A stretch of DNA of 64,000 nucleotides from Escherichia virus TH47. Below are positions 8,331 to 61,207 of the stretch, one piece after another. The stretch lies in sequence record MT446416.1, one strand, 5' to 3'. Within the stretch, counting starts at the first letter, position 1. The number at the start of each line of letters is the position of its first letter. The position numbers were made by a program, and so were the translations under genes. The notes under the pieces were generated by a model. It searched no databases, was not told where the DNA came from, and was given only the letters and a program-made list of their open reading frames with translations.

Positions 8331-8380
8331 GTACTTTCTACAAATACTTTTAAAATAGTTTTCTTTCTATATAGGGGAAC

Positions 8381-8432: not shown

Positions 8433-8596
8433 TGAATCAATCCACTAAATCATCCCTATACCCCGTAAAACGGCCTCAGACGCATTCTAACGCATTAATA
8501 CACCTAAGCTATACATTTGCACCATTCCAATCATTCCAGGGCTTTACGGGCCGTTGAAACGCGTTAAATTATTTTCAATTATTTTGTTTTTAGGTA

Positions 8597-8624
8597 TTGA
8601 CTTGATCCTGAAAAAGCGTATAAT
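8597..8624 (+). promoter_or_regulatory. plus-strand sigma70-like promoter
   Basis: TTGACT-N16-TATAAT; CCCACAGGGTGCGG box about 30 nt downstream. Confidence 0.5.
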
Positions 8625-8813
8625 TACTACATAAGCCGGACACAAGGCACTAACCCACAGGGTGCGGAATTACGCCCAAAATTCAAGATATAAAAAAAGG
8701 ATACACTCCCGCACCCTAGCAGGTCAACGCACTTTCTCAGTACTGAAATATAGTACCATAGTACTTGCCAGGATAGCAAGCAAATTAATTAAAACTTTTT
8801 TGCTTCCAGGGTA

Positions 8814-8841
8814 TTGCTTTATTTTTTCAGTACTGTATAAT
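8814..8841 (+). promoter_or_regulatory. plus-strand promoter
   Basis: TTGCTT-N16-TATAAT; CCCACCGGGTGCA box at 8870-8882. Confidence 0.45.
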
Positions 8842-8937
8842 AGTTTCATCAAGTCGAGAAAGACTCAAGCCCACCGGGTGCATAGTTACGCCCAAAATTC
8901 AGTACTGAAAAAATTTTTAAAATATCTGTCCAGGCCG

Positions 8938-8966
8938 TTGACATTGCCCCCAGTTTATAAGATAAT
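8938..8966 (+). promoter_or_regulatory. plus-strand promoter
   Basis: TTGACA-N17-GATAAT; two GGGGAA...TCCCC-type hairpins downstream. Confidence 0.45.
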
Positions 8967-9059
8967 GATTCCAGATTCAGAAAAATCTAACTCCAGATAC
9001 TGCGGGGAAACTATCCCCACGCGGTAGGGGAACTATTGGAAAAAACAAAATAAAATTTT

Positions 9060-9200
9060 GATTTAGCCGTCTATACTTCCAGACGTGTAACCATCTAGCC
9101 GTTTAGCCGTCCAAACGTCTAGCCATCCAGCCATCCAGAAATCTAGCCGTTTAGCCGTCTAGATGGATAGCCATCTTTACTTCCATACTTCTGGAGGTCT
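9060..9200. repeat. iteron cluster (TAGCCRTY x about 9) with CCAAAATCC repeats just downstream
   Basis: tagccgtc / tagccgtt / tagccatc units within about 130 bp, interleaved with tctaga-type palindromes. Confidence 0.8.
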
Positions 9201-10099
9201 AGACATATCTACGTCCAAAATCCACCCAGGGTTACTACACCCAAAATCCGTCAGTACTATACCATAGATCTATCTTTTGAAAGGGAGTATTCAGTACTGC
9301 CATCATAGCCCTCACTATGTTACCCTAGGAGGATGAAGACTATCATGTAGTACTGAATACTGTTAGAGGGAATCCACCAGCTTGTGCTGGTGGCATAATG
9401 CTTTAGATTAAAATCAGTACTGACACCATTCTGTTAATATCAGTACTGTTATTACGATTTTCATATGAGGTTCAAAAAGATGTACCACCACAGGAGGAAC
9501 TATCTTTTCTGTACTGTCTCACGACAGGAGGTAGAGTAAATGAATTGTTCGCAGCAACTCATCTCTCTATGTAGAACATTATACAGTACTGAATCATAAT
9601 GTCAATAACTTTCTTTCACCATTCAGTACTGATATTCTTGAGAACTACCCGTCTACAAACATCATTATATCCCACAAATCATAAACGTCCCAACGTAAAT
9701 TTCAACTTTCGAAGATCCAACTTTTATTTCATAGGTACTCCAAAATTTTTAGGATCGAGATTTAGGATGGAGTACTAACCAACTTTTTGCTGGAGCCTCA
9801 AGGGGTAATTGAATTTTACCCCGAAGGGTAAAAGGGTAATTGAAATTAAGGTGAAAGTAATAATTCAGTACTAATCATTGCGTGATTACTTTTGATTACA
9901 TTTGATGTAATTTGCAAAATGGAAAAGGAGCTTGGAAACTAAAAAGTACGGTAGACTTCCTCTGCCTACTTAGTGGGATATCGACACCTTCAGTACTGAA
10001 TACTTTTGGGGCAGTACTGCTACGTTCTTGATTAAACGTGCACATTCCTGTACTCTATTACACTCTAGTACTCACTACTGATCAGTACTGATCACTACA

Positions 10100-10150
10100 G
10101 TGATTATAAATGATTACTTAAATGTTTATATATGATTACTTATGATTACT
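10100..10150. repeat. ATGATTACTTA direct repeats (3 copies)
   Basis: read directly. Confidence 0.7.
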
Positions 10151-10154
10151 TATG

Positions 10155-10175
10155 ACAAAGAGAAGCCAAAAGCTT
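10155..10175 (-). terminator. terminator of small-gene array
   Basis: hairpin GAGAAGC-nnnn-GCTTCTC followed by T-rich tract on minus strand. Confidence 0.5.
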
Positions 10176-10312
10176 CTCTGTAGAGTTACGGGGTTTAGCC
10201 TGGAGAGAATCCTAGTGATCGCATTTGTCCAGGCTGAATTTTAACAATTCGCCTGTACATAAAGGTTGTTCACTAGGAGCTTCCCCAGTCTCTATGTGCT
10301 CTATATGTTGAA

Positions 10313-10522
10313 TTACTTCCTATATATAAGTATTAACATATAGTAGTACTGATTATGCTGTACATTCTCTTTAATATTATAAGGGTCTATAGCAATCTCG
10401 GTACATCTGTTAAATGCATATCTATTAAATGCCAGTACTATTAGATTGTTAACCCATGCTTGTTCGTTTTCTTTTAGTTTACTTATATAGTACTCTTTAT
10501 ACTCTTTATACTCTTTATGCAT
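10313..10522 (-). CDS. small leader-family protein (69 aa)
   Basis: N-terminal MHKEYKEYKEYYISKL (9-bp unit repeated 3 times); C-terminal hydrophobic YxLILIY. Confidence 0.6.
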   Translation of the reverse strand: MHKEYKEYKEYYISKLKENEQAWVNNLIVLAFNRYAFNRCTEIAIDPYNIKENVQHNQYYYMLILIYRK

Positions 10523-10535
10523 AGTATTATCTCTA

Positions 10536-10718
10536 TTAATATGATAGTACTAGTGTTAGTACTGAGCACAATTGTTCTTTATAGTTCTTAGGGTATATAG
10601 AATCTTTTATGCACTCATTGAAGTGCCATAGGTATAATCTTGGGTCGCATTCTTTATATATTTTTACGGGGACGAATGTTAGTTTTCTTATATAGAAGTC
10701 TTTATGTTCTTTATTCAT
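10536..10718 (-). CDS. small leader-family protein (60 aa)
   Basis: MNKEHKDFYIRKL leader. Confidence 0.6.
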   Translation of the reverse strand: MNKEHKDFYIRKLTFVPVKIYKECDPRLYLWHFNECIKDSIYPKNYKEQLCSVLTLVLSY

Positions 10719-10920
10719 ATAGGAATAGTATACCTATGATGCCTGAGTACAGGTTAGTACTGTTATTATTGTCGTTTGCGTTTAAAGTCATTTGAATACA
10801 ATTATTGTAGCATAATCTGCCGAAATATGTATCAGTACTTAAAGGTGGTGTAGTTCTTAGAAACATTTGTTCTGATGTACTGAGGTGTTTGGAGTAGTAT
10901 TCTTTATGTTCTTTATTCAT
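10711..10920 (-). CDS. small leader-family protein (69 aa)
   Basis: MNKEHKEYYSKHL leader; body paralogous to 11285..11491 (CYNNCIQ...YSGIIGILFLYE). Confidence 0.65.
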   Translation of the reverse strand: MNKEHKEYYSKHLSTSEQMFLRTTPPLSTDTYFGRLCYNNCIQMTLNANDNNNSTNLYSGIIGILFLYE

Positions 10921-10925
10921 ATTAG

Positions 10926-11111
10926 TTAGTGTCTGTATATAAGTAATAGTAAGAATACGTACTGCACCTGTTCATCTTTAGTATTGAGTACTGTACGTAT
11001 TGCGTCATGGAACAAGAATATAGTACTTGGGTCATTAGAATTTAAGGGGTTTACGGGGACGGCGTGTTTGTAGTTCCCTTTAACAAATTGTATATAGTAT
11101 TCTTTATACAT
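10926..11111 (-). CDS. small leader-family protein (61 aa)
   Basis: MYKEYYIQFV leader. Confidence 0.6.
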   Translation of the reverse strand: MYKEYYIQFVKGNYKHAVPVNPLNSNDPSTIFLFHDAIRTVLNTKDEQVQYVFLLLLIYRH

Positions 11112-11112
11112 A

Positions 11113-11292
11113 TTAGTACCTGAATATTAGGGCGAGAATGTAGTACATATAATTTTGGTTCACAGCACAGTCAGTATGGTCAATGAATTGTTGGGTCTTT
11201 TTCTTATCCTTGAAATCTATTGGGTTTAGTAGTATAAGCATTTGGGAGTTTATATCCAGATGGCTTACGTAGAATTCTTTATAGTTATTCAT
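11113..11292 (-). CDS. small leader-family protein (59 aa)
   Basis: MNNYKEFYVSHL leader; ATGAATAA start/stop overlap with upstream gene; below ORF-track cutoff. Confidence 0.5.
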   Translation of the reverse strand: MNNYKEFYVSHLDINSQMLILLNPIDFKDKKKTQQFIDHTDCAVNQNYMYYILALIFRY

Positions 11293-11491
11293 AGAAGAAT
11301 ATTAGTCCTATTACACCTGAGTACATAATATTTTTGTTATTGTATTCTAATGCGTCTAGAGTACTACGTATACAATTATTAAAGCAATCTCTGGCGTGTT
11401 GTGTATCTAAACGTAAAGGTGATACACTCCTTAGAAACATTTGTTCTTCGTTGCTGAGGTATTTGGTGTAGAATTCTTTCTGTTCGTTCAT
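11285..11491 (-). CDS. small leader-family protein (68 aa)
   Basis: MNEQKEFYTKYL leader; CFNNCIR...YSGVIGLIFFYE. Confidence 0.65.
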   Translation of the reverse strand: MNEQKEFYTKYLSNEEQMFLRSVSPLRLDTQHARDCFNNCIRSTLDALEYNNKNIMYSGVIGLIFFYE

Positions 11492-11501
11492 ATTGGCCTC
11501 T

Positions 11502-11690
11502 TTAGTACACGAAAGCTAGGTACAGTACATGATACAGTACTTGATTATAGTTGTAATAATTTATCACGCATTTAGTGCACGTAATGAAGTAGTCTTTTTC
11601 GTAGTTTATTTCTATACCGCGAGGTTCATCTTCTAACAGATTACCTTGAAGGTGCGGTGGTAAATCTTTTATGTAGTATTCTTTATACAT
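11502..11690 (-). CDS. small leader-family protein (62 aa)
   Basis: conserved start MYKEYYIKDL at 11690; ORF-track N-terminal extension is read-through of the upstream copy. Confidence 0.55.
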   Translation of the reverse strand: MYKEYYIKDLPPHLQGNLLEDEPRGIEINYEKDYFITCTKCVINYYNYNQVLYHVLYLAFVY

Positions 11691-11691
11691 A

Positions 11692-11882
11692 TTAGTACCT
11701 GAATATAAGTAGGATAGTGTTATATAGTTGGTCATAACTACTACTATTTTCTATACTGCGTTCTATGCAGTTATTGAATCCCAGTACTGCCAAATCGTTA
11801 TCCAGGGGGGGACTTTATATCTGGCGTAGTATTCAAAAATGCTGGGGAGAAATTGTGTGTAGTATTCTTTGTGGTTGTTCAT
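11692..11882 (-). pseudogene. frameshifted leader-family member (poly-G7 tract 11805-11811)
   Basis: starts MNNHKEYYTQFL; frame breaks at the homopolymer; one extra C/G restores a 63-aa ORF ending ...GFNNCIERSIENSSSYDQLYNTILLIFRY. Confidence 0.5.
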
Positions 11883-11892
11883 ATTGTTCTCT

Positions 11893-12075
11893 TTAGTACT
11901 TATATATTAGGGCGAGGATGTAGTACAGTTTATATATTCTATCCTCGTACATTAGGGTGTACTTAGTACATTCTTGAAACATTGTTTTTGCGTCATCTTT
12001 TATGCCCAATGCAACGTTTGGTATATGGCTCTGTAGATGCATTGGAAGTTTCTCTATGTAGTATTCTTTATACAT
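11893..12075 (-). CDS. small leader-family protein (60 aa)
   Basis: conserved start MYKEYYIEKL at 12075 (ATGTATAA overlap with stop of 12068..12739). Confidence 0.55.
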   Translation of the reverse strand: MYKEYYIEKLPMHLQSHIPNVALGIKDDAKTMFQECTKYTLMYEDRIYKLYYILALIYKY

Positions 12076-12739
12076 AGTTTGAAATATACGTAATGAGGTG
12101 ATGAATTTTCTTATCAGTACTGATAAGTTCCTGTACATGTTTTGTTAGTTTGTACGCGTTTTTATAGAGTCCTGGATTATCGATTACAGTACTGTACATG
12201 AATTCTTCTTCTGGTGTTAATTCTTTGTTTTGTAGTTCTTTTAGGAATTGCAGTACTGTAATAGTTTCTTCTGTACGTTGCTGTTGGAAGAAATGCATGT
12301 TATCGTGTACTTTTTCTGAACCAATGCAGTACATATCGCCGATTTGGAATTGTGCTGTACGGATATCATGGGTGCTATTACAATTCCCGAAGAAGTATAC
12401 ATTCCCGAAAGATAGAATTATAGTGCACGGGATATTATCCAGGTGCATATAGATATAGATAGATGCGTCCTCTAGTGCTTTTGTGCTGGTATTAGTACTC
12501 AATACTTTTAAATCAGTATTATAGATATTCATATAATGAACAGCTATATTATTTTTCTTCATGTACAATTCAAGGTTCTTTGATACGTTAACTCCATTTG
12601 TACTGGTTTTTTTACTTTTCTTTAGGTTCTTTAGTACATTAGGGTGATAAGTATATGCATTAGTAATAGATTCAGCCTGGATGGATTGCAAGTACTTAAA
12701 GTGCTGTAGGTATCGTTTACTTTGTGGATTGAGTTTCAT
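12068..12739 (-). CDS. long leader-family protein (223 aa)
   Basis: N-terminal KRYLQHFKYL leader-like; C-terminal domain paralogous to 21657..22307. Confidence 0.6.
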   Translation of the reverse strand: MKLNPQSKRYLQHFKYLQSIQAESITNAYTYHPNVLKNLKKSKKTSTNGVNVSKNLELYMKKNNIAVHYMNIYNTDLKVLSTNTSTKALEDASIYIYMHLDNIPCTIILSFGNVYFFGNCNSTHDIRTAQFQIGDMYCIGSEKVHDNMHFFQQQRTEETITVLQFLKELQNKELTPEEEFMYSTVIDNPGLYKNAYKLTKHVQELISTDKKIHHLITYISNYV

Positions 12740-12750
12740 ATTGGTTTCCT

Positions 12751-12930
12751 TTATATAGATGCGAGTGCGAGGATTTCCCTGTAGGGATTATCTTGTGTTA
12801 GTGCGTGATGAATGCAGCTATTGAGATTAATATTTTTAGTACTGTTAGTTGCTAGGTTGTAGTACTTCACGAAGGTGTCGTACATGAAACGGTCTTTAAT
12901 GCTTATGTGTTCTATATAGTATTCTTGCAT
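12751..12930 (-). CDS. small leader-family protein (59 aa)
   Basis: conserved start MQEYYIEHI at 12930. Confidence 0.5.
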   Translation of the reverse strand: MQEYYIEHISIKDRFMYDTFVKYYNLATNSTKNINLNSCIHHALTQDNPYREILALASI

Positions 12931-12995
12931 ATTATTCCTTAGATTTAGATTAGTTTTAGTACTTCTCTGTACGTGTACTTTTCGTTTTGTGCTTC

Positions 12996-13118
12996 TACTG
13001 TACATGATAGAAAGTATCGTTTTTATCTCTTTTGTTCCCGACTGTGTAGTACCTTTGGAATTGATTATAAATGTATCTATCTTTGTGCTGAAGTTTATAG
13101 ATATAGAATTCTTGCATA
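12996..13118 (-). pseudogene. truncated leader-family copy
   Basis: MQEFYIYKL... ORF of 40 codons; flanking sequence duplicates 12921-12980. Confidence 0.35.
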
Positions 13119-13125
13119 GAGTACC

Positions 13126-13311
13126 TTAGATAGAGATTAGTTTTAGTACTTCAATATATGTGCGGTACTCTGCTTTAATTAAATTTGTACACACTGTAAG
13201 GGAACTTCTTTGTATAAGTTTATTGCCGCTTTTATACGCATTTCTCCACACATAGAGATGAGATCTTTCTGGCATAGATAGTTTATTTGTATAGTACTCA
13301 AATGTATTCAT
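13126..13311 (-). CDS. small leader-family protein (61 aa)
   Basis: start MNTFEYYTNKL at 13311. Confidence 0.5.
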   Translation of the reverse strand: MNTFEYYTNKLSMPERSHLYVWRNAYKSGNKLIQRSSLTVCTNLIKAEYRTYIEVLKLISI

Positions 13312-13321
13312 AGTATTCTCT

Positions 13322-13507
13322 TTACATATCAATAAGTTTCAGTACTGCTCTGTACGTGTACTTAGTTGTTAGTGTTTCTTTTATAGCAGTACAGAAGTAA
13401 TGTTGTTTGTCTCTAGTACTGACGCGTTTGTAGTACCATACATGGGAGTTGTGGCTGTACTTGTCCCTGTCGGATAGTTTTTGGTAATAGTAGCTTTTAT
13501 GATTCAT
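13322..13507 (-). CDS. small leader-family protein (61 aa)
   Basis: MNHKSYYYQKL leader. Confidence 0.55.
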   Translation of the reverse strand: MNHKSYYYQKLSDRDKYSHNSHVWYYKRVSTRDKQHYFCTAIKETLTTKYTYRAVLKLIDM

Positions 13508-13618
13508 TGTAATGTAATTAGCCTTATTATGTTAAAGTACTCGGTCCCTGGTACACCTTGTAGAATATTATCAACTACATTTATTTGGTGCAGGATGAGT
13601 ACATTCGGTGCGGATCTT

Positions 13619-13717
13619 TTAAGGTTTTTTTAAAGTACTGAATTCTTGTTTAAGGATGTTCTGCACATCTTTAGGGAGAATATCTAAGTAGTACTGATGA
13701 ATGTTCATAGTTTTCAT
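13619..13717 (-). pseudogene. truncated leader-family copy
   Basis: MKTMNIHQYYLDILPKD... stops after 32 codons; resembles N-terminus of 13916..14128. Confidence 0.35.
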
Positions 13718-13728
13718 ATAGTACTCTT

Positions 13729-13914
13729 TTAGAACTTAAAGATGAGGTTCATGATAGATAAGTACTTAGTTTCAGGAAATTGATGTTCTATTGCATAACG
13801 TGTCGCCAGTCTGAAGTCAAATTTATAAAAGGGAGTATTCATATCCAGAGGTTCATTGGGGAATGAATCTCGGTATTGCTTGTGCAGCTTACTACAGTAG
13901 AATTCTTTATACAT
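13729..13914 (-). CDS. small leader-family protein (61 aa)
   Basis: MYKEFYCSKL leader. Confidence 0.6.
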   Translation of the reverse strand: MYKEFYCSKLHKQYRDSFPNEPLDMNTPFYKFDFRLATRYAIEHQFPETKYLSIMNLIFKF

Positions 13915-13915
13915 A

Positions 13916-14128
13916 TTAGTGCTCGATTAATAGGGTAAGGATGTAATAGTATTGCATACTTTCTACCCCTTGTAAAGCATTTCTTATTTTATTATTCCTG
14001 TACGAGTTCAAGAGTTTAGGACAATGTTTGAGGTTTATATAATTATTTTGTGTATACAGTAGGCTTTCTCGTAGACCTTTTGTTGGTAGTGCATCGATGT
14101 AGTACTGTTCAATGTTCATAGTGTTCAT
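13916..14128 (-). CDS. small leader-family protein (70 aa)
   Basis: MNTMNIEQYYIDAL leader. Confidence 0.55.
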   Translation of the reverse strand: MNTMNIEQYYIDALPTKGLRESLLYTQNNYINLKHCPKLLNSYRNNKIRNALQGVESMQYYYILTLLIEH

Positions 14129-14352
14129 AGAGCTACCAGTACTAAGATTTTTGATAATTGTTTATTGCTATCCCCGCAGATGTTGCTGTGTAAAATACTC
14201 GCGGTGAGGGTATCAAGTGCACTGTTCAGCATAAGGTTACATCCAGTACTGTTATGTGTTTTTAGCTCTATCAGCCACGAACTATCCGCGAGAAACTTCG
14301 CGTACTCTAGTTCAGTTAGAGTATTGATGTAGTACTTAAGTGTAGTTGTCAT
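14125..14352 (-). CDS. small leader-family protein (75 aa), first gene of array
   Basis: MTTTLKYYINTL; AAGGAG RBS; promoter 14378-14406. Confidence 0.6.
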   Translation of the reverse strand: MTTTLKYYINTLTELEYAKFLADSSWLIELKTHNSTGCNLMLNSALDTLTASILHSNICGDSNKQLSKILVLVAL

Positions 14353-14377
14353 GTACAGTTCTCCTTATATTCCTTCT

Positions 14378-14406
14378 ATAGTACACCAGTACTGAAAGGA
14401 TGTCAA
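14378..14406 (-). promoter_or_regulatory. promoter of small-gene array
   Basis: TTGACA-N17-TACTAT on minus strand, divergent from the first RCC1-like gene promoter. Confidence 0.55.
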
Positions 14407-14410
14407 GGGT

Positions 14411-14450
14411 TTTGTTTATGGGGTAAATATGATATAATGAATAAAGGAGG
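14411..14450 (+). promoter_or_regulatory. promoter/RBS cassette of RCC1-like gene 1
   Basis: TTGTTT-N16-TATAAT then AAGGAGG 5 nt before ATG; same TATAAT-AAGGAGG cassette upstream of genes 3, 4 and 6. Confidence 0.5.
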
Positions 14451-14455
14451 GAAAT

Positions 14456-15577
14456 ATGTTACCTTTTGTTAGAATGTTTGATTATGGAAATGAAGCACCT
14501 GATCCTAGTTCGGGATTTCGAATAATAAGTACAGGAGACGCATTACTATTAATTACTGAGAGTGGTGATTTGTGGGTGCGTGGTTATAACCGTTATGGCA
14601 AGTTAGGTATAGGTAATAACACCACTACCTATGTACTTGATTGGACGAAGGTTAGAAGTGATGTGAAGTTTGCGTGTGGTAGTGGATTGGTAACAGTTAT
14701 CTTTACTAAGGATAATCGTATATTGTACTGTGGTGACAAATGGTTTGAAACGGGTGGTGTTGGTAGTGCACAGATTTTCACATGGACAGATGTTACGCAC
14801 CAATTTGGGGTAGTAGATTTGAGTACAGTAAGGGATATGAAAATGTCTTATTACACGATTGGATTATTGACTACTAATAATCAATTATACGCTAAGGGAT
14901 TTGATAATAACCTATCATTTGGTGGGGTTACTAATAAGGCGACTGCTGTGTTTATTGCGAATAATGTACAAGAGTTGTATACGAGTTTAGTTAGTACTAT
15001 CTACGTTGATACAAGTGGTATATTACATCGTTGTGGCATGAGTGATAACGGTTCGTTGGGTAATAATGGTAGTTTAACTTCGTATCTAAGTTATTCACAG
15101 CCTGGTATGACGATTAAGGACATTGGAATGATGACTACGAACACTGGGTTATTATATACTGATTCTAGTGCACGCACGAGATATTTTATTGCTGGACAGA
15201 ACTTGAATAAACAGATGGGTAATGCGGCGTCTGCGAGTGCCATTACGAGTACTTACACAGAGCTTTCTGGTAGTGTTGATAAGTTTTCTTCTTTATGGGA
15301 GAATGATGGGATATTGATGACATTTGCTGTGGGTAAGAACACTAATCAGTTATTTTATGCTGGGACGAATACTTTTCATGCGAGTGGTGGTGAATCTTCA
15401 TATGCGGATACATATGAGTTAGTCCCGATGGTGTTTAATGACATACAGGAAGTGTTATGTGCACAGCGTTTATCGGTGGTACATGATTCTACGAAGTGGT
15501 ATTACTGTGGTGATGCTAATTCAATGTATGGTTTACCGGACGTAAGTACTTTTACTGAGTTACCGTTGCCCTTTTAA
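14456..15577 (+). CDS. RCC1-like repeat (beta-propeller) protein, paralog 1
   Basis: 373 aa; leader MLPFVRMFDYGN; repeated G-x-N-x-x-G-x-LG-x-G blocks. Confidence 0.7.
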   Translation: MLPFVRMFDYGNEAPDPSSGFRIISTGDALLLITESGDLWVRGYNRYGKLGIGNNTTTYVLDWTKVRSDVKFACGSGLVTVIFTKDNRILYCGDKWFETGGVGSAQIFTWTDVTHQFGVVDLSTVRDMKMSYYTIGLLTTNNQLYAKGFDNNLSFGGVTNKATAVFIANNVQELYTSLVSTIYVDTSGILHRCGMSDNGSLGNNGSLTSYLSYSQPGMTIKDIGMMTTNTGLLYTDSSARTRYFIAGQNLNKQMGNAASASAITSTYTELSGSVDKFSSLWENDGILMTFAVGKNTNQLFYAGTNTFHASGGESSYADTYELVPMVFNDIQEVLCAQRLSVVHDSTKWYYCGDANSMYGLPDVSTFTELPLPF

Positions 15578-15585
15578 TAATAGGT

Positions 15586-15616
15586 CAGTACTGAAATATG
15601 TACTGGTATTTTTTGT
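15586..15616 (+). terminator. candidate terminator
   Basis: CAGTA...TACTG hairpin followed by T-run. Confidence 0.4.
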
Positions 15617-15654
15617 AAATACTATATAATTATTTTAATTTTGGAGATTTAATC

Positions 15655-21629: not shown

Positions 21630-21658
21630 GCCAGTACTTGAGTACTGGCTTTTCTTTT
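21630..21658. terminator. bidirectional terminator
   Basis: GCCAGTACTTGAGTACTGGC hairpin flanked by T-run, between convergent genes. Confidence 0.6.
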
Positions 21659-22307
21659 ACATATTATATAATGTGAATGCAGTCACTTTACCAGTTGTTG
21701 TTAGTTCATTATAAAGATACTCCAAGATTCTCGCACACTCTAAGTATATCTCGATATCATCATGAATAAGTGAGTACTGGAATAGCTGTTCTTCAGATAA
21801 TTTGTATTGACTCCCTCTTAATGAATTGAGAATATCTTTCACATCATCAAGTACTGGGTAAAGTACGAAATCTTCATCATATTTTGAAGCAATAAATTCA
21901 AATCCACCACCATCAGTACTAGATATACCAATCAGTACTTTATCAATCAAGTTAATGTTTATATAACGGTTGTGATTTGGGTGAATTGAAATCTCAAACA
22001 TACGAGTACTGTTACAATCAACATCAATATACAAATATACATCATTGAATTTATAAGTTAAGCAACCATACTCAATGTAATCAGAGCAAATAATTGATGA
22101 ATTTTTTCTCGTCTCTGCGTAATGCATATTGATATTCTTTTTACGCATAAGTAATTCGAACTTTGCACTAAACTTACCACCAGTAAGATAATTAGTATTA
22201 GGACGTTTGTAACTGGCAACTGGCCTATGGGATGATGAAAAGTATCTTTTTGTGAATCGTTTCTGTTTAGTGAAATATTCTTGATAGAACTTATTTCTTT
22301 TATTCAT
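21657..22307 (-). CDS. long leader-family protein (216 aa)
   Basis: start MNKRNKFYQEYF at 22307 with GAGG RBS; C-terminal domain paralogous to 12068..12739 and FQYS family. Confidence 0.6.
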   Translation of the reverse strand: MNKRNKFYQEYFTKQKRFTKRYFSSSHRPVASYKRPNTNYLTGGKFSAKFELLMRKKNINMHYAETRKNSSIICSDYIEYGCLTYKFNDVYLYIDVDCNSTRMFEISIHPNHNRYININLIDKVLIGISSTDGGGFEFIASKYDEDFVLYPVLDDVKDILNSLRGSQYKLSEEQLFQYSLIHDDIEIYLECARILEYLYNELTTTGKVTAFTLYNM

Positions 22308-39271: not shown

Positions 39272-42200
39272 TTCACACTCCTTAAAGAGATAAATTACTT
39301 TAATATTTATACTTCATGTGCTGTTTATTTCCACAGACACTTAAGATTATATCACATATGAAATGGTTGTTCCAAAGTCAAATCAGTACTGTTTAAGTTC
39401 TGAACTGAAGATAAAGGAATCCATATCTTCTAGTGTTAACTTCAAGTCCGGTGTGTACTTTAATATCACACATTCAGGTTTCTTAATGGCAGCTTGATAG
39501 GCAGCAATTGCCAACTGTTGAAGCTGCTCTGGTGTGTAGTTCATGCGTTCTGCATTGAATACGATGTTGTTAATATCACCACCTGGCAGCTTCTCAAACT
39601 CACGCATAACAGCAGCCATCACATCATCAGATGTATTCTTATAAGCCCAATGAGGTAGTTGCATAACATCATAAATCTCGCCATTGTCGTTCATAAGAGA
39701 GATCCATTTTTTACCGTCCGATGAACTAAACAGACGACCTTTAATAGCAATGTTCTCTACCAAATTAACAAAGGCAAATATGTCTTGCTCATTTAGTTCA
39801 ATGCTATTAACGTTAATCCAACCCATACTACATCTCCAGTTATAAATCACGAACGACATTCATTAAACACAATTTGGGCTTTATCGCATTCAAAACCCAT
39901 ATGCATTCTTTGTAAGTTGCTATTATAGCATCTAAATGCTCAGTTACAATGCTTTCTTGAAAATATTCTTCTTCATTGAGTTTTGCTAAATTAGTCACAT
40001 CACATGTAGGTACTATAGGTCTGGATTGTACACCCATTCCATTATTGATATTGGTAAAATGTAAAAAATTGTACTTCACCACACCGTTATCTACACTTAT
40101 GATGCATGTCAAATGTTCCAACTCAGTTAGTTCGGTATTACAAGTGACATGAATGAATCCAGCATTATAGGCTCTATAATCATCTACTAATATCTCAAAA
40201 TCATTACGTTCAAATATAAGTGAAATGAGTTTGTCTTGTGGTTTAACCTTCTGAAATTTTACCGAATTTACGTATGATACTTTAATCTTAGATGAAATTA
40301 TCTTTTTACTAAGTGCAGTTAATTCTTCTTTAGCCTTAAAAGTTAAAGTTATAGGTCTAAATCTAGAACTTTTGTTCTTCTTTGATACTTTGAACTTACC
40401 TTTTCTATTCATTAATTAAACCCCACATAAAGTAAAAGGGATGGCATATTACCAACCCTATATCTTTTATTTTTTAATAGATTCATAAAGCAGAAACAAC
40501 CAAATAAACATTGATGAACAAACTACTACTGGGATTAATGTAAATTCAGTAAAGAATAAAAGTATTCCATAAGTTAGTATGCAACATAAGTTTACGTACA
40601 TAATTGCTTCTGCATTTTTATTTTTCATTTTATATGCAATGAATGTTGGTGACCACATTACCAAAAATGCAAACAACGCACATATGATGATTACAGTTTC
40701 CATATTACACCTCCGCAAAATAATGTTCTGTACTGCTATTATTTACAGAGAATATCTAAAAAAATTGATCTAGATCAATTTTTAGTCACTTTACAATTTG
40801 AATCTTTTTTGTACTGAACAATCACATTGTTCTTAAGGAAGATGATGGTCCCATAGGAACCTTGGGCTGCAACTTCAACAATATGGTTCTTATATGTTTC
40901 AGTATACCCTTCCATCTCGTTGATACACACTACATGATACTTTGGTTTAGCACATACAACAGTACTCAAGAATAGCAGTACTAGTACTAGATATTTCATT
41001 TTATTACCTTATAAACAAGAACAGGAATCCTTTTACGGATTCCTATAATTTAGTCCTTTAATGTACCATTGTGTAAACGATTATACACATCATTGCGACG
41101 CAACGCAACAATATCTTCAGCGTACTTCATTGTAAACGCCCATGCTTTTGGATGCACATTAAGCTTCATACGAATGCGATTCTTCATCAATTCACCGCTT
41201 AGGCGAACAAACTCATGAACACCACGACTTCCGTACTCTGAAATCAAATCATTGATGTACATGTTGCGAAGGGTTTCGTCTGTACATTCTTTAACCATTT
41301 CTACGTCTGCCACGATGCTTGCATTTACTGAAGTACTGATCATTTTTAAGTTACCTTATTTGAATTGGACTGTAATTTTATCACCTTCAACTACGAACTT
41401 ACAGTCGTAGCGACGGGCCATATCCATATACATATGCTCAGAATACCACGGAACATCAATATCAGGATGCTCTGCGTATTGTAGCACTTCACGGTCACCA
41501 ACAGTAGTGATGACGAAAGGAATGTTCATCTCTCGCAAAAACAACTCAGCACCTGGTGAACGATTGACAAACTCAGTGTCGTTACGCAAAGTAAAACCAT
41601 TGTATTGTAATTTAAGCTTCATGATTATCCTCTAAGTTAATACCATTCTTTTAAACCATCAAGTTCGGCTATGTGAGTAATTATAACACAGATCACACTG
41701 AGGTCAAGCATTATTTGCTCATAATTTAATTTTATTCTATCATCATTGTATGCTCTAAAAACAACATCAAAGTCGAAGTAGTTATCGTTTTCATCATTCA
41801 TTGGAATGATTCTATATCTACGCCTACCATCATCATTGAATACAGTTAAACACTGTTTAAATTTCTTCATTATCTGTGTATTCAATGCATTGTAATATGC
41901 AACATCATATTGTGTACAACGTGGGTCATTGGGTAGATAAAACGATACAAATTTTTTTAATTCTATTTGAGTCTTATCCATATACAGCCTCATGTATTAC
42001 TCTTTTACTTTGGCGGTACTCATCCTTTGCTTCTTTCACTGACATGATACGAACCAGTTTAGCACTACCACAATAGTACTGAACCTGACTACGACCAATG
42101 TCAACATGATTATCAGGAACTTCATATACTGATACAGCAAACCCTGCACGATGTAATTTACCCAAGTCCATAGTAAAGAACTTAAACAAATCATTCAAAC

Positions 42201-42475: not shown

Positions 42476-45400
42476 TTTATTTTGAAGTTCTTGAACTAAT
42501 TGTCGTACTTCTTTGATGTTATGACACTGCTTTACAGTGAAGTAATCATACTTACGACCATAGGTTCTTGGGTCATCACCTTCCATATACTGCTGCACAT
42601 CAAAGATTTGTAAGTAGGGATGCTGCATAACACGAATGTTATCACATTGATAAATCAACATATGTTTAGTCCTCATATTTACACAAGCCACCGAATGTTG
42701 CCTGTTTTGCTGCCTTACGCATCATCACAAGTTTAACATACTGTTCGCCATTACTTTCTTCATATACATCAACTTGAAGAAATGCAAGCATATTGGGATC
42801 AGTATCATTCGAGTACTGCGTAAAACTAATGTCACCTACAGTATGTTCTTTAACAAAATTATACACTTCACCGTCGATATAAACGATAGTATGGTCATCG
42901 CTATCACCTTGGTAAATGTGTTTAATATCACCTTCAGTACAGACTAGTCCAGGTAATGGTTCTGCATAAGACATACCACACACAATCATACAAACAAAAA
43001 ACAAAATTACTTTCATGATTTGTTTCCTTTGGATAAAATTGATTTCTTCACTTTGTACTGCTTGTAGTTATTATACCAAACATCGGTTACATAAATCAAG
43101 TACCAAAGTGATGGATATAATGCTAGACCAATAAAAACTGAAAAAATACTTGTATTAATAAAATCAATACAGTACAGTGTAAATGCAAAGATTAGAATAC
43201 CAATGGTAATCATACTAGCTGTATATGGTACACTATCAGATGCAAACCATGAATCAATCTTACTAATTAAAGTATACTTTCCAGTACTAACAGCATAAAC
43301 AATTGCTACTATACCAAATAATGCCATTGAAATAGTTATTACTGAGTTAATAAGAATCGGAGTAATTAATACATAAAGCATTACATCGTTTATCATTTGT
43401 TATACCTTAAAGTTCACAATGAATATTCAATTTATCAATATCCTGATCGCGTTTGTTCGACGAATCTTGATAAATGTCTATGTAAATATCCCCATCCTTT
43501 GTCTTGGGGTCCACTATCAATATTACATTTGCTATTATACCAGCATCTGATTTATATGTCGATACCTTTTTATTCCCAATCAAACTCTCGGCCCTGAAAC
43601 GGTAAACCTCATTATCTACGACAATATTGTTTCCATTTTGTGGGTCATTAGAAAGTACATGCCATGTTCCATCGTTTCCCATACAATCAAGGGAAGCAGG
43701 TACGGCTGTACTGAACCTTGAATAAAGCATGAATACTACAAACACCATTATCATTCTTATATATTTTTTCATTATAACCTCTAACGAGTAATACTTCTAT
43801 ACAAATAATATGTACAGAAGTATTTAATACTATTAGAGAATTTTTGAACGTTACTTCTTGCTAGTTAGTTTTTCTTTCAGGATATCAATCCAAATGGAAA
43901 CTTTACCAGCAAACAATGCATTAGCAAACCATACAATTCCAACAATGTTCTCAACTAAATTCATAATTGAAACAAAAGGTCCAATTGGGAATACAAAACT
44001 TACTAACCATGACAGTACTGAAATAAGTACTACAACAAAGAAGATTCGTGCAATAGGTGAGTCTAGCATAAACAACTCACGAAACTCATCACGCTCGGTT
44101 TCGTCTTTAATGAAGAATTCGAAAACCATAACCAATAACAGAATTAGAGCAGGAATTGAAATTAGAACTGATAACATGTTTTATATCCTCAAGTTTAAGT
44201 GTTAAGTTTCAGACTACAAGAACCATTATACAGTACTACGAACGTTTGTCAACATTTGTTTCTTCAATAAGCATAAGATAACTTAACACGAAGAGTAATA
44301 CAGATACAATGTCAATAACGGTGAAGCTTACTGGAATGATAATAGACACTAGAACGAGTGCCACGTTTAGCAAGAATACAGTAGTGATATCTACCAGCTT
44401 TCGTTTAGTGGCTACTGCTACTAGTGTAGGGTAGAACATAAACAATAATGCAACTACAAAACTCAATACTAGATACATTTCTTTTTCACCTTAAGAAAAT
44501 TATAACATAAAACAACCTCAACATCTGGCTCATCATACAAGTACTCAAAGCGTTCTTTACTACGCTTAGTACCGATGTACTCACCATTCTTATGCCAACG
44601 CCACCCACCACTCTCTGGTTGGTCAGACTTCAGTACTGGATGATAGCACATGACAATTTCTTCTGGACCTTCAATAAGGTTCTTGTACTTCGTCAAAATC
44701 TGTTCAAGCGTATCTGCTACACCATAAGATGGGTGCATAAGATAAGACTCAGGACGTGGACGACCACTTGGCAGAATGTCATCAGTACTATTAAAGATAG
44801 CACGGAAGTCTTCTGACGTGTATAAACTTCCATCTTCATGGATCATTGGATATTCATCCACTACATCATAATCAGTGAAGTGCTCGATGGCATGTTCAGG
44901 TCTGTAACCTGCGAGAATACCTGTATGTTTCGTCTGTACAATAGTCATAACAGATGTACTATTGTTTACATTAGGATCATGAATCTCAGCCCAAAAAGGA
45001 TGATGAGGATCAAATGTAGCATTAACTAAAGTACAATCACCAATGTAGTCGAAATTAGTTTCTTTAAAGTTCAAAGAAACACCACGCAATGCCCAATCAG
45101 GAGAAGTGATGAAATTAAGATTTACTAACATAGTATCCTCAGTTGCAGTTGTTTTTTGATGTAGTTATTGTATCAGAGACGTGTCAATTTGTACAACATT
45201 TATTGTAACTATTTCGTACATATATTCAATTGCATTGAACTCTGCATACCACTCTACAATCTCACAAGCAGCATCAACTTGGTTTTTCGCATTAACACGT
45301 CTGGCATAGGTGCTGCTCATTTTGAATCTACCATATTCATAGACATTGTAGACACCATGACACCACCACATCTTAGTCATTAATGCTAGGCCATACAGTG

Positions 45401-48400
45401 AATTGTAAGTCTTGGTATTCAAATTTACCAATATCATTCTTCTTACGGAATGATTCTTCAACCTGAATTTCTGCGTCGTACTGACCATCGGCCTTTACTA
45501 CGTACTTAAAATTTTCTACATGTGAAAAACGATACCCTTCTCCGTCTTGCTTGGATACTTGTACTGACCCTTCAACTAGATATAAATTCATTTGTCATTC
45601 TCCATCATATTCTGTGAGTATTACACTATGTACTGTTTCAACATAGCGTTGTGTTTTTGGTGTGTTGTACTTAGTTACTTCATCAAACAATTTAAATAGA
45701 GCATGTGTGGGGCTTAATGCACGAACAAATACATCAATCTTCTGAACTTCTTTCTTATAACCACGTACATTATTAAACTCAGATACATGCTCATAAACAA
45801 TGTAGTAACGATTCATATATTAAGTAGTTCCATAAATTCATCGATCAAGGAAGTTCTAATGCACATAACAAATTCAAAATCAACATCGATAGTATCGAGT
45901 AGTTTGAACAACTTTGGTACATTTGGATCATTCAACTGGAAGTTATGAATCAAGCTCTGTTGAAACACACTTTCTTCAGTACTGTAATCAATAACAAAAT
46001 ATTCAGCTACACCTGGTGGTGAATAAACATCATATAATATCTGACGTTTATTGTGTGTTTCTGAACCAGGACAATATATAAGTTCTATTTCATACGAACC
46101 TGCCGAGGATCTATCATAAAACACAATTTCAGTACTGATTATTTCACTACCATCACTACGTTCATAAAAACATACATCGGCATATCGTTTACCATTGGGC
46201 TTCAAAATCTCATGAGTTGTTTTACCATAACATTTATCAGTTTCAATGTGAATTTTGTCTTGATATTCAGAACGTCTTACATCATTTCCACGATTAAACA
46301 ATAAGATTAACAACTCATTAATATCCATTATTTCGCCTCAATGACTTTAAGGTTAACGAAATCACCTTTTACTTTCATGCATTTGAATTCAGTGCGAGTT
46401 TCATCCCCACTATCGCGAGGCCAATGAGTAGCAGAGTAGCACTGGTCTGGTGTTTTATATACACCTTCACCAATAGTACGAGTGATTTCACCATTGGTGA
46501 GAACTACTGCGAGATATAAAGTAAACATGATATTCGCCTTAGAATAATTTATTAATAATAGCACCCACCGCAAGAACTGCAATAATTACAGATACCCACA
46601 TTACTGCATTCACTGTACCAGTTAGTTCTTTATCAAACTCCCTGCACTTCTTACGGTACTCTTCCCACTCTTTGTTATTCACACTGCCGCTCCTAATAGG
46701 TCGGTAGCTTTCTTCAGTACTACGTCAATGGTTTCCAGTACTGCACCTTTGTGTTCAATTGATACAATATTATTATAAGTATCAAGGTCCAAGTACTCCA
46801 TATATTCAGTTTTGAATACACGAACATCAGTACTGGTGATTTTAAGATCGCAACCTTTATCCCAGATGACCTGCATCATTTCATTGGTAGTCATTATTCA
46901 ACCTTATCATAAACAAGTTTGTGTGTACTTATTACTTTGTTGAGGTGTCCTGGACAATCATATACATACAGACGCTCCTGACGTTTTTCCCAACTCCCAC
47001 AAATACGTCCTGCTTGTGTACATATTTCATATTCGTTAATAAAAGACTTACCTGTGAATGTACAATCCTGACGAACTAAGTCTTTTGCACTAAACCTGCC
47101 GTCATCATTACATGCTGTAAGAAACATTGTACAGAATACAAAGACAACAGTCAATAGTTTTTTAATCATTGAACATCACCCCAACGGAAGCCATTCATAT
47201 AATTTAAATTCACCTCAACGAGTTCATGTGTTTTTGTACACCAAATTGACAGAGTTTTTGTAAAATCACCTGGTGAACTTTCATATTTCACACAATATCC
47301 TTCGATACGGAGAACCGAATGAGTCCATAATTCCCACTCAATCCAAATTTCATTTGGGTGATATACAATATCTTCGTTTAACTTGTGATATTCATCCAGT
47401 GGAAGCTGTGTAGTGATATCAATATATTTTACATTTCGACTGAGTTTTTCAAGCTGATATCGTGTATTAGCTAGATATTCTTCGTCATTCAGACGAGTTA
47501 ATAAACCTGCTGCACGGGTTGTATCAAGACTCATTGTTATTCTCCATGAACCACAGATGTATCCACGCGAACTGTACCACTCATATAAGACGTAGTAGTG
47601 TTTGCATTAGGGCAATAAACTGTATACAAGGTTACGCCAGAACCATCCTTTTGCATACGATAAATCTTACATCCTGCTTCTTGTAATTCAATAGGGAGAA
47701 TAAAATCACTTGTGCGTTCTTTGGTTGAAGCGTCACATGCAGTGAGTAAAAATGCAACGAGTACTGCTACGATATATTTCATTAACGAACCTCCACTTCT
47801 TGAGAAAGAGCATGAGTCAGTGCATTTGAATTCGAACCATTCATTTCATGCTGACATACAAACATAATGGCATCTTGTACTGAACCTGCGATTTCATACT
47901 CACGACCTTCAGGATCAGTTACCAGGTGTTCAACGATGCAACCACCACTAAGTACAGAAGCACCAGTACTTACACTAATTCTGTAACCTAAAAAATCAAA
48001 CTGCATACATGCGTCAGTAGGTTTCATCCAATAACCGCTGTTTTGATTCAAATCGATGATTACAAAACCTTGAGTGTTAGTTTGAAACATAGTTAATTCC
48101 TCATTTAATTTAAAAGGGCGGGAACGCAGTGACGAGTACGATTATGCTGTCTTTCCTTTCACTGCATTCCCTTTGATATAAACATTATACAGTACTGATA
48201 TCTTATGTCAAGTATTAATCACCAAAAATCATCAGATACCCAAACCAACCCACACAGACGACTAAGCTAACAATACCAAAGACAATCTCTAAAGTCATGT
48301 TGCATCCTTAATCAAGGATTTTATATTCAATATGACCAAAGTATCCAGCCTCAAGGATGCGATTACCATCAGCATCTTCCAAATCCCACCCACGGGATGT

Positions 48401-58220: not shown

Positions 58221-61207
58221 TCTATATCTTATTTGAAGTTTTTACGTAGAACTTCTTCCAGTGTTTGTTCTGGATTAGCAATTGCAACAGTGTAAATCAA
58301 ATCTTTGAATGCCTGTACTGCTTGCTCAGTTGCTTCTTTACCGAAGTTAGCTGAAATACTGCTAAACATATTTTCAGCACGTTCAGAACTAATTAGTTCA
58401 TTAACAAAGGTATCAATCTCTTTTTTGAGTTGTCCAGTTGTCATGTCACCAATTAGCATTTCATCAACTTCTGGCTTTTCATCAGTACTAACACGTACAT
58501 TTGTAAAGCCAAATACATCATCCAGTGAACCAAAACTATGTTTAACTTTAGAAACAATAGATGGCTTGGTGCGTTCTACTGGTTCTACTGGTTCTTCTTG
58601 TTTCTCTTCAGAATCAGTACTTGATTCGTATGGCTTGGTGAACATATGAGTGAGAACGTCATCAATGTTTTTAATCATACCTTCAACACGTTCTTCAGTT
58701 TTCTTAGTAACTTCTTTGAATGCTTGCTCAAGTAGACGATCTTGAACTGTAGTACGTACATCACCAACAACACCACGTAATTTTTCATTACACTGGTCTA
58801 GAATTGATAATAGTTCACCACTTTTAATTTTGTCAACCAATAAATCAAGGTCAGATTTAACTTCAGGTTTCTTCTCAATACCATTTAGTAAGCTGTTAAG
58901 CTCTTGAGCACCCTCAATCGCTTCTTGATGACTGGTAAATTGAACAGGCACATCAACACCATCTAGAACGATATTGAGTACTTTACCATCTACATAAGCG
59001 TAAGAGTAATATTCTTTTTTGAAGGAAATGGTTTTGAAGAAAATGTTGCTCATATTGTTACTCCTTATTTCCCAGATGCTGGGTATGTTTTAAACATATA
59101 GTGACATTGTACTAAATCATTGAATTTCAATCCAAAATCTTTAGTACCCATCAGTGTGTGATAAAAATAATGTGAAATCTCATTGGTTTCTGCATCTTTA
59201 ATATAGATACCGAACTCGGTACAGCAGAACTGAACGACTTCATTATAACCTACTAATTTCGAAACAACAAGTACTTGATCATAAGAATTTGCATCAAAAC
59301 GAATGATATACATATCTTCAGTTTCAGGATGCACAATCATACCACCACGTGAAATGATTTTGACAAAATTCTCGCTCAAGTACTGAATTGTTGAACTCAT
59401 GTCCATCTACGACTCCTTGCGTATAACACGTCCTGTTAAGTGCTCATCTGCACAGAACTTCATTATAAATGCCTTAAGATAGAAGTTGTCTAAGATGCGG
59501 TATGCTTGCTTCTTCATAACAACTTCCTTCTTTTCTACATCTACAATTATATCATGTTCTTCATGAAGTTCCTGGATCATTTTGTAAGTTTGGAAATTTA
59601 GTACGCTCATAACCACCTATATCCTCCATTTCCCATAAAATTCCAATCGCAACTGAAAGATCATGGTGAATTTGAAAATAGCCATGTGCAGCAGTGTAGA
59701 TATAACCATGCTTGGTTATTGCATAACCCCACTTCTTACTCTCCGAATGCATCGCACGCTTCAATGCATATGGTGATCGGGGTAGCTTCTCTGGCTCTGG
59801 CTCACGGTTTTCGTTGTAAATCTCTTGTTCGATTCTCAACGCTTTATGATATGAGTATACATGAATTAGACGACAAAGTACAATAGTAATGCAACAAATA
59901 ATTGTAAAATATATCAGATTAATCATTTCAACCTCTGCATAGAAACGTACTCGTTGATTGCATCAACTAAATCATATCCAGACATCACCGTATCATTGAT
60001 GGTCACATTGTACTTTTTACGAACTTGTGTACCATCTGTTTTACTGTATAGTGATCCATCTGGTTGAATTGTTAAAGTATTGTTTAGAATAAAATCAAAC
60101 ATTTCTTCTTTTGATAGATTTACAGTACGTGTGTCAATATGATCAGTACTTACCAATTCACGAGTATGTTTGACACCGTACTCGGTGTGTTCACCTACAC
60201 TACGATGCAATACCTTTAACTGCTCGGCTGCTGTCTCTTCATCATAGACATGAATAGTTTCAGTACTGTATACAATATCTTGAATATTACCAGTACTTAC
60301 TTCTGTCCATGTATCTTTGAAATGTGTTTTGATTGTTTTCATAGTAGTTCGTATTAGTTATATGAAGTGAATAAATCAATATTTGCATCATCTACACTGA
60401 TTAATTTACCAGTTGAACTAACAAACACAATATTACCACCAGGGGTGAGTTGAACACGCTGGTTTACTGAATATTGATCACTAAGGTTATAATTAGCCCA
60501 TTCAACTACATAACGCTGTTCAACACCATTAGTATCATAAAGATAAACGTGTGTAACATCACGCATTTTTAAACGTTCTAGTAGTGTTGAGTTATCCATG
60601 AAATCAGATGGTGTGTCACTACGTAATGCGATACCGAACTCACCAATACCAGTACGAATAGTTAGACCGTTGGAAAAACGACTACAAAGAGTTTTCTCGT
60701 CAGCAATATGCATCCATAAAACATTCTTTACTTCAATCTCAATGAACTCACAATTTTCAAAAACTAAACCTACTTTAGAAACCTTACCATTAAATTGCAT
60801 CATAAACTCCTGTTTTTTTGTATTTTAAAATAAAATCTCTTGCTGCTTTCATAAGTTTAAATGGAATAGCTAATTCTTTAACAGTACTATCCATGAAATG
60901 TTCTTCTTCTGTATCATAGAATGTTGACATGTAATGGTCACAATCGTCAATTCTATCCCAGAAATCGGATGTACTTGGCTTGTTAGCGATGACAGTTATT
61001 TGTTTATCAGTTTTAGTATAGGAGGCATGTATCGTTAATCCAACATCACCCTTTTCAACACGAATTATAAACGAATTATTAGATGTATAACTCAGCCAAC
61101 AATCTTCACCGAAGTATACAGTACTGTGTTTCTTCTCAAATGTATTACTGTTTTCAAGTACATCAATGACAATATCAACCGCATTGTCACTTAAAATTTT
61201 GACCATA

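Follow-up and report, generated by a model that had tools for sequence, protein, structure and literature searches.

A shared motif links two basic-tailed genes to a family of small acidic proteins in an Asteriusvirus-type jumbo phage

The 64-kb window analysed here (the whole 64,000-nucleotide stretch from sequence record MT446416.1, Escherichia virus TH47) belongs to an Asteriusvirus-type E. coli jumbo phage. It shares 81–98% DNA identity with 347–386 kb jumbo phages, among them vB_Ec-M-J, WPEC5, SP27, and phAPEC6, and nearly all of its genes lie on the minus strand. In these 350-kb phages, some 83% of genes lack an assigned function. One gene, here called gene A (Table 1), is embedded in an array of 14–15 tiny genes (10313–14352) and raises the question of where its relatives are to be sought: among its tiny neighbours, in gene B, which is the lone minus-strand gene within a plus-strand RCC1-like array (14456–23510), or in genes C1–C4 at 61.2–63.5 kb, which adjoin an HNH endonuclease gene and, in related phages, also a tRNA cluster. 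An initial annotation had joined all of these, proposing that A and B begin with the leader of the tiny genes and end in a C-terminal domain found again in C1–C4.

Genes A and B are real, conserved genes. Both open reading frames were found on the minus strand exactly where the initial annotation had placed them, each with a ribosome-binding site (AAGGAA ahead of the ATG at 12739 in A; GAGG for the start at 22307 in B) and with full-length orthologues (22 clusters at 65–100% identity for A; 5 clusters at 44–96% for B). Neither has the small and acidic character of the core members of the family described below (120–170 aa and pI 4.1–5.5, as compared to a window median pI of 6.8): A has a pI of 8.8 at 223 aa, B a pI of 8.2 at 216 aa, and in each only the part after residue 60 is acidic.

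Table 1. Genes, motifs, and regulatory elements discussed in the text, with positions in the 64-kb window
Feature	Position	Strand	Description	Evidence or remark
Gene A	12068..12739	-	223 aa; full-length member of phrog_29152; orthologue of phAPEC6 gp544c	Long-form, motif-bearing
A N-terminus	12560..12739	-	First 60 residues, net charge +8; remainder -4	Charge computation
A second motif	12512..12601	-	Residues 47-76, TNGVNVSKNLELYMKKNNIAVHYMNIYNTD	Common to B only
A motif	12167..12220	-	Residues 174-191, LTPEEEFMYSTVIDNPGL	hhalign of A C-terminal part against family C-terminal part
Gene B	21657..22307	-	216 aa; full-length member of phrog_34359	First 60 residues +14, rest -12
B second motif	22098..22187	-	Residues 41-70, LTGGKFSAKFELLMRKKNINMHYAETRKNS	Common to A
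B motif	21747..21800	-	Residues 170-187, LSEEQLFQYSLIHDDIEI	At start of predicted helix 172-181 (AlphaFold model)
Hairpin	21630..21649		Terminator-like, bidirectional, GCCAGTACT..AGTACTGGC	Between 3' ends of B and convergent RCC1-like gene
Gene E	39840..40412	-	190 aa; phrog_33518; motif LNEEEYFQESIVTE / LNEEEYFQESIV	phrog_13866 match, E = 0.002
121-aa protein	43407..43772	-	N-terminus signal-peptide-like by eye	HMM, E = 1.5e-4 to 2e-6
Gene F	45813..46328	-	171 aa; acidic, pI 4.6; motif STEESVFQQSLIHN / STEESVFQQSLI	Iterative HMM, E = 8.4e-4 before inclusion
Gene D	60790..61206	-	~138 aa; phrog_24027; motif DTEEEHFMDSTV; directly downstream of C1	Fifth member
Gene C1	61208..61612	-	134 aa; pI 4.4; phrog_17453; motif IDEDMFFQLSTVYD	
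Gene C2	61621..62037	-	138 aa; pI 4.3; phrog_35192; motif LTEDMYMQLNFVYD	Start is the ATG at 62037
Gene C3	62767..63126	-	119 aa; pI 4.2; phrog_17453; motif YTEESLFQYSMIND	
Gene C4	63119..63535	-	138 aa; pI 4.3; phrog_17453; motif DTEEKFFQYCLVND	
Sigma-70 promoter	63199-63171	-	Near-consensus, extended -10	Inside C array
Sigma-70 promoter	62823-62795	-	Near-consensus, extended -10	Inside C array
Sigma-70 promoter	62117-62088	-	Near-consensus, extended -10	Inside C array
Sigma-70 promoter	61267-61239	-	Weaker, fourth of the group	Upstream of D

A, B, and the genes at 61.2–63.5 kb all carry the motif L-[ST]-E-E-x-[FLY]-[FM]-[QM]-x-S-x-[VI]-x-D. It reads LTPEEEFMYSTVID in A, where Met replaces Gln as it does in gene D, and LSEEQLFQYSLIHD in B; the consensus of the A orthologues at this place is LSEEELFMYSTVIDNP. 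Because pairwise BLAST similarity was weak (25 bits between A and B, 25 bits over 23 residues between B and C3, 56 bits between C3 and C4), profiles were built and compared by hhalign. B matched the family at P = 3.1e-5 with a narrow profile (probability 73%), 8.4e-6 with a broader one, and 3.6e-6 with an iterated one (probability 87%); the values for A were 0.02, 1.1e-4, and 1.5e-5, the last with a probability of 80%. A signal that strengthens as profiles become more diverse is what true homology typically produces. The A family and the B family matched one another at P = 0.0063 over 149 colinear columns. Control profiles (TM array, RCC1 array, small-gene array, reversed, and column-shuffled) gave P = 0.08–0.96, and the TM, RCC1, and small-gene families of the window compared with the narrow profiles gave P = 0.3–0.96. 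When the columns of the A and B profiles were shuffled the mean score was 12 (sd 2.3, maximum 20.5) and when the profiles were reversed the scores were 11–13, as compared to 31–39 observed. The initial annotation had made its proposal depend on the shared motifs being significant in profile–profile alignment, and for both A and B they are; judged from the sequences, the recurrence of the motif in A, B, and the family is far beyond chance.

A motif of this kind could in principle be a product of chance or of the DNA itself. The palindrome (C)AGTACT(G), which codes for QYS, YST, or VL according to frame, is conspicuous here: AGTACT is over-represented 10.5-fold in the window and occurs in six of the nine motif segments. 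However, the palindrome is out of register between A and D on the one hand and B, C3, and C4 on the other, about ten positions of the motif are conserved rather than three, and in the wider family L-T-E-E-x-x-F-Q-x-S is retained while M, L, or Q takes the Tyr position, so that the palindrome is absent. The control families drawn from the same genome, with P of at least 0.08, also speak against an artefact, which we consider hardly credible. On the grounds that it is out of register between genes and that members in other phages use FQM or FQL, the palindrome was rejected as an explanation of the motif.

How far the similarity reaches was judged by dividing each alignment where the motif begins and comparing the parts upstream and downstream separately. 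The C-terminal parts alone matched the family strongly (A: P = 4.9e-7, 18 columns, z = 12.8; B: P = 2.4e-6, 25 columns, z = 10.8), and the parts upstream of the motif showed no similarity to it (z = -0.2 for A, 1.0 for B). Between A and B both regions are alike: the upstream parts share SK.LE.YMKKNNI..HY (P = 0.0047, z = 4.8), and the C-terminal parts match at P = 3.6e-4 (z = 4.9). B is also colinear with the PHROG of A, phrog_29152, across residues 42–207 (E = 1.5e-3 in a library of 38,880 families). An iterative HMM search of 632 ORFs did not reach a full-length match at E < 1e-3 for B (~0.01), for gene E (0.013–0.07), or for A (0.017–5). What A and B appear, from these alignments, to have in common with the 61–63 kb genes is thus a motif of ~18–35 residues and not a demonstrable domain. 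The C-terminal domain that the initial annotation had assigned to all of them survives as a motif and as the kinship of A and B in two regions, but similarity to the family is limited to those 18–35 residues, and the term "two-domain family" was an overstatement, as A and B resemble the family in sequence nowhere outside the motif.

The family itself is real and is larger than had been noticed. The initial annotation had described four tandem motif genes at 61208–63535; the motif is indeed in all four, but they form two pairs, split by two ORFs (62278–62753) that no family profile matched. Directly following them, gene D was given the ATG start that agrees with PHROG and orthologue annotations; an orthologue of D was recruited at E < 1e-3 in the iterative HMM search, after which D scored 7.4e-9. 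A regular expression written from the known members returned two unanticipated proteins, E and F, against 0.01 expected in shuffled proteins. Gene E has a basic N-terminus (+15 in its first 60 residues, -8 in the remainder) and is probably a third long form, linked to the others through the motif alone. The N-terminal motif of A and B was also sought in E, where KIKVSYVN resembles it by eye, and was rejected: E is absent from the best 14 domain matches of the motif HMM. The window holds at least six clear family members, three of which the initial annotation had missed. The 121-aa protein at 43407–43772 has a match to the family profile that is confined to the strand-rich part (IYIDIYQD); it is possibly, though uncertainly on such sequence similarity, a relative that lacks the motif.

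Beyond the window, when the C profile was run exhaustively against 1.84 billion representatives, 28 clusters matched at E <= 1e-3, all of 87–170 aa and all carrying the signature L-T-E-E-x-F-F-Q-x-S-x-x-Y-D-L-x-x-L-T. In SP27, 15 members reach E < 1e-3 between 50 and 100 kb (the counterpart of the right end of the window plus the region beyond), and several others there match more weakly, which makes about 15–20 copies in 50 kb. Divergence within the family is great, with identities to C4 of 15–28% and one pair at 35%. In an alignment of C1–C4 from the window and the C4 orthologues, only N51, D66, E98, and Q103 (C4 numbering) are invariant; in a broad family alignment only E98 and Q103 stay nearly so, and no stretch of 7–10 columns is conserved. 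Further ties run among the members: C1, B, and E all match phrog_13866, B and C2 both match phrog_34516, and the 13 best non-self matches of the B HMM among 348 ORFs include A, C3, E, C2, and C1. The family is multigene and lineage-specific, being confined to RaK2-like jumbo phages.

Structure prediction offered a second view. The AlphaFold2 model of C4 (pLDDT 84.7, pTM 0.80) has a helix at residues 5–15, six consecutive strands across 19–91, and helices at 92–95, 98–107 (the motif), and 115–125. The model of B is of low confidence (pLDDT 55, pTM 0.53); its order is two N-terminal helices, six strands in 80–151, and helices at 154–162, 172–181 (the motif), and 185–204, an arrangement compatible with, though not proof of, a basic extension followed by a C-like body. 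Searched against BFVD, the C4 model matched uncharacterised proteins of GAP32, RaK2, PBECO4, and CBB. A Foldseek search of BFVD with the B model returned only its own orthologue and one 199-aa protein, with no C-family entry, a search made uninformative by the low quality of the model. When first 7 and then 29 members were scanned against Pfam, there was nothing recurrent and nothing above the gathering cut-off, including no recurrent SUKH match of the SMI1-KNR4 immunity type, and PDB sequence searches with three profiles yielded no match below E = 0.1. The MAM33 / p32 / gC1qBP family (PDB 3qv0, 7te3, 1yqf, 3jv1) was among the closest known systems named.

On this evidence we lean towards placing A and B, as diverged relatives with an N-terminal extension, beside a large paralog family specific to RaK2-like/Asteriusvirus jumbo phages. 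A different account would make A and B an unrelated family that carries the same ~20-residue motif through recombination or through convergence at a helix start, with bodies that differ in fold and function. The confinement of the similarity to 18–35 columns, with z no greater than 1 for the parts upstream of the motif, fits that account, as do the differences between A and B and the core members in length, charge, and genomic context and the lack of a C-family entry in the fold search with the B model (pLDDT 55). Yet the motif stands at an equal relative place in the proteins and in the same predicted order of six strands, short helix, motif helix, and final helix; loss of signal outside the motif is expected, since even recognised members are only 15–28% identical to C4 (35% in one pair); and all copies reside in one genome that demonstrably expands this family. 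Nor is there a sign of recent transfer, as DNA identity across the motif is 49–74%, with synonymous differences, which likewise rules out recent gene conversion, a source of the motif that was considered and rejected. Acquisition of the motif by an otherwise unrelated family is, in our judgement, possible but rather unlikely. A and B are nonetheless basic overall, ~80 residues longer than the core members, and located outside the promoter-dense block that houses them, all of which weigh against membership.

The supposed tie between A and B and their tiny neighbours fared worse. The small-gene array consists of genes of 60–80 aa with the leader M-x-K-E-Y-Y-I-x-x-L, and the initial annotation had read these genes as truncated, leader-plus-N-domain derivatives of a two-domain protein of the A/B type. 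A is located inside the array, and B begins MNKRNKFYQEYF, which resembles MNEQKEFYTKYL by eye. However, an HMM of the small genes that recovered all 15 array members (E = 1e-24 to 6e-3) reported neither A nor B at E <= 10. With an HMM of the leader only, B scored 2.3 bits (E = 2), behind unrelated genes, and A was absent from the best 40 domain matches; the N-termini of A and B are thus not picked out as leader-like. In hhalign comparisons the small-gene profile gave P = 0.61 against A, 0.30 against B, and 0.57–0.73 against the family, the same as unrelated controls. One array member, 12751–13005, was weakly matched by the A HMM (E = 0.017), which might favour a derivation, yet the match falls in the C-terminal part of A and not the N-terminal part. 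With every one of these comparisons failing to connect the array to A or B, its origin from an A/B-type protein is very improbable. A match of the small genes to the C-terminal motif module (e.g., LSNEEQMFLRSV right after the leader, or DRFMYDTFV...CIHHAL in 12751–13005) was also considered and rejected, at a profile–profile P of 0.6.

On the minus (coding) strand, 27 sigma-70 promoter matches at >= 11/12 positions were found as compared to 2.5 expected; the plus strand has only 4. Three of the 27 lie inside the C array (Table 1), and none at this threshold occurs in the 10–26.8 kb region that is home to A, B, the small-gene array, and the RCC1-like genes. Proteins detected in the phAPEC6 virion by mass spectrometry include RCC1-like proteins, and the list does not include gp544c (A), gp540c–548c (the small array), or gp083c–088c (D, C2, C3, and C4) (PMC7247149 Table 1). 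Mass spectrometry of virions can readily overlook small proteins, and the C1 orthologue is not annotated in phAPEC6. The promoters and the virion list together suggest that the core family is likely expressed early and outside the virion. Capsid-targeted internal proteins of the T4 IP type are found in the virion, their N-terminal targeting sequence having been cleaved by the prohead protease. A T4-like capsid-targeting leader was considered for these genes and set aside as unsupported by the phAPEC6 virion data, from which A, the small array, D, and C2–C4 are absent.

A scenario for the family may be assembled as follows. It starts from what was observed (homology in the motif, the family's extent, the pattern of charge, the modelled fold of C4, and the density of promoters) and adds, as inference, a structural role for the motif, early expression, and a binder or decoy function. 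The core fold, as modelled, would begin with a single N-terminal helix, continue as an antiparallel meander of six strands, and close with two or three C-terminal helices, and members appear to share almost nothing beyond L-[TS]-E-E-x-[FY]-F-Q-x-S-x-[VI]-Y-D-L-x-x-L-[TS], placed at the start of the penultimate helix. A hydrophobic residue followed by Thr/Ser-Glu-Glu-x-aromatic at a helix start is the pattern of an N-cap with a hydrophobic staple, and for that reason the motif is read as a keystone of the fold and not as an active site: the Thr/Ser would cap the helix, the preceding Leu and the Phe at N4 would form the staple, with the conserved Glu and Gln packing towards the sheet. Repeated tandem duplication may then have been followed by free divergence of the rest of each protein, as would be expected if variable surfaces on one scaffold served to bind different partners. 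Strong host-type sigma-70 promoters are dense in the block that holds the core members, which are thus probably early genes; that setting, together with their lack of detection in virions, makes host takeover or counter-defence the most likely role, which would be exerted through protein binding or decoy action. We hold with low confidence that the core family is a duplicated, fast-diverging scaffold of early host-interaction proteins. A and B would have retained the motif helix together with the next helix, in a part of the genome that appears to be differently transcribed, and their strongly basic, aromatic-rich N-terminal regions (+8 and +14 in 60 residues) may anchor the two proteins on nucleic acid or membrane.

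Comparison with known systems places the family beside, but apart from, other expansions in the same phages. Eleven tandem RCC1-like genes have been described in phAPEC6 (PMC7247149) and 22 paralogous ORFs in CBB (PMC5259590); like these arrays, the acidic family is a lineage-specific tandem expansion, in the same phage group, followed by rapid divergence. Unlike the RCC1-like array, it is a different and more diverged protein family (at 15–28% identity to C4, with one pair at 35%), and it went undetected in the virion whereas RCC1-like proteins are virion-associated. A second comparison is with DNA mimics of the Ocr, Arn, and AcrIIA4 type, which are small acidic decoy or inhibitor proteins of phages. 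By analogy, the core members may be considered similar in being small, low in pI, absent from the virion, and encoded among early genes, but sequence or significant structural similarity was not found. PHROGs of unknown function hold every gene discussed as a full-length member (17453, 35192, 24027, and 28118 for the core; 29152 for A; 34359 for B; 33518 for E) but keep them as separate unannotated families, in which form alone the family is catalogued; the motif-level link and the basic-tailed long forms are unrecorded there. A keyword search of the CBB, phAPEC6, and jumbo-phage review papers did not find a description of the family.

With some twenty or more hypothetical proteins per genome brought into one family by a diagnostic motif, the unassigned fraction of these genomes becomes smaller, and the family provides a defined set of candidates for joint screening in host takeover and anti-defence. 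That A and B carry the same motif elsewhere in the genome extends the family modestly and does not amount to a new mechanism. A bolder interpretation, which we regard as speculative and unlikely as it stands, is that the phage keeps a repertoire of binders built on a single conserved scaffold: the fold would be held by the keystone helix motif, the differing acidic surfaces evolved by the duplicated copies would each neutralise a different host factor or defence system, and A, B, and E would be the versions tethered to nucleic acid or membrane. If this were true, RaK2-like jumbo phages would carry an unrecognised anti-host arsenal of some 20–30 genes per genome.

The palindrome AGTACT occurred 228 times in the whole window against 21 ± 4.5 expected (10.5-fold), often in the longer form CAGTACTG; CCAGTACT was found 43 times in the window, with 1.8 expected. 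Sites were densest at 1-16000, fell in every codon phase and included 61 outside called genes. The excess was also seen in related phages, ranging from 4.8- to 16.7-fold (SP27 loci L004 and L005; phAPEC6 locus L007). Phage genomes more often avoid palindromes, whereas here one is in excess, which points to a phage-specific site for binding, modification or structure. A terminator-like hairpin, nearly identical each time, was located 3' of each RCC1-like gene (positions from 15584 to 23541 in the table) and was made from this palindrome (GCCAGTACT..AGTACTGGC).

All seven RCC1-like paralogs shared the N-terminus MLPF(V/A)RM..YGN; in phAPEC6, the orthologues of these paralogs are 'DNA condensation proteins' associated with the virion (PMC7247149 Table 1). 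Proteins of the TM array had basic tails (..R.K.P..) and N-termini that appeared hydrophobic, resembling membrane segments; this array is another lineage-specific expansion. Common to the small-array proteins were the start M-x-K-E-Y-Y-I-x-x-L and a hydrophobic tail, Y-x-x-L-x-L-I. This leader resembles MKTYQEFIAE, a capsid-targeting sequence of T4. In phAPEC6, no orthologue of the small array (gp540c-548c) was detected in the virion. The protein encoded at 43407-43772 matched only the strand-rich half of the profile of the acidic family, the paralogs of 120-170 aa (E = 1.5e-4 to 2e-6), and was without that family's motif helices; this protein may have derived from the family and be exported.

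Features located in the window
Feature	Position	Strand	Remarks
Sigma-70 promoter matches	334-9605 and 26853-63199	-	
Small-gene array	10313-14352	-	14-15 genes of 59-84 aa
Truncated small-array copy	12995-13117	-	n=1
RCC1-like paralogs	14456-23510	+	n=7, 369-400 aa
Terminator-like hairpin	15584-15607		
Terminator-like hairpin	18022-18040		T-runs on both strands
Terminator-like hairpin	20420-20444		
Terminator-like hairpin	21630-21649		T-runs on both strands
Terminator-like hairpin	23515-23541		T-runs on both strands
TM array	23547-25986	-	tandem, seven genes of about 104-123 aa
Further TM-array gene copies	33902-34591	-	two, 8 kb away
Protein with signal-peptide-like N-terminus	43407-43772	-	121 aa
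Strong sigma-70-like promoter	62117-62088	-	
Terminator-like hairpin	62086-62060	-	12-bp stem; directly after preceding promoter

Near-consensus matches to the sigma-70 promoter, agreeing at 11 or more of the 12 positions, numbered 27 on the coding (minus) strand of the window against 2.5 expected, many with an extended -10 TG, and four on the other strand. At 62060-62117 (-), upstream of the start at 62037 of the acidic-family gene C2, a promoter was paired with a hairpin that could be an attenuator or, alternatively, the upstream gene's terminator overlapping the next promoter. At 10-26.8 kb, there were none of the 27 minus-strand matches. Because of the promoter excess on the coding strand and this gap, the sequence suggests that the promoter-bearing parts would form an early region read by host RNA polymerase, split by a differently transcribed block that would comprise the small array, gene A within it, the RCC1-like genes, gene B among them, and the TM array.
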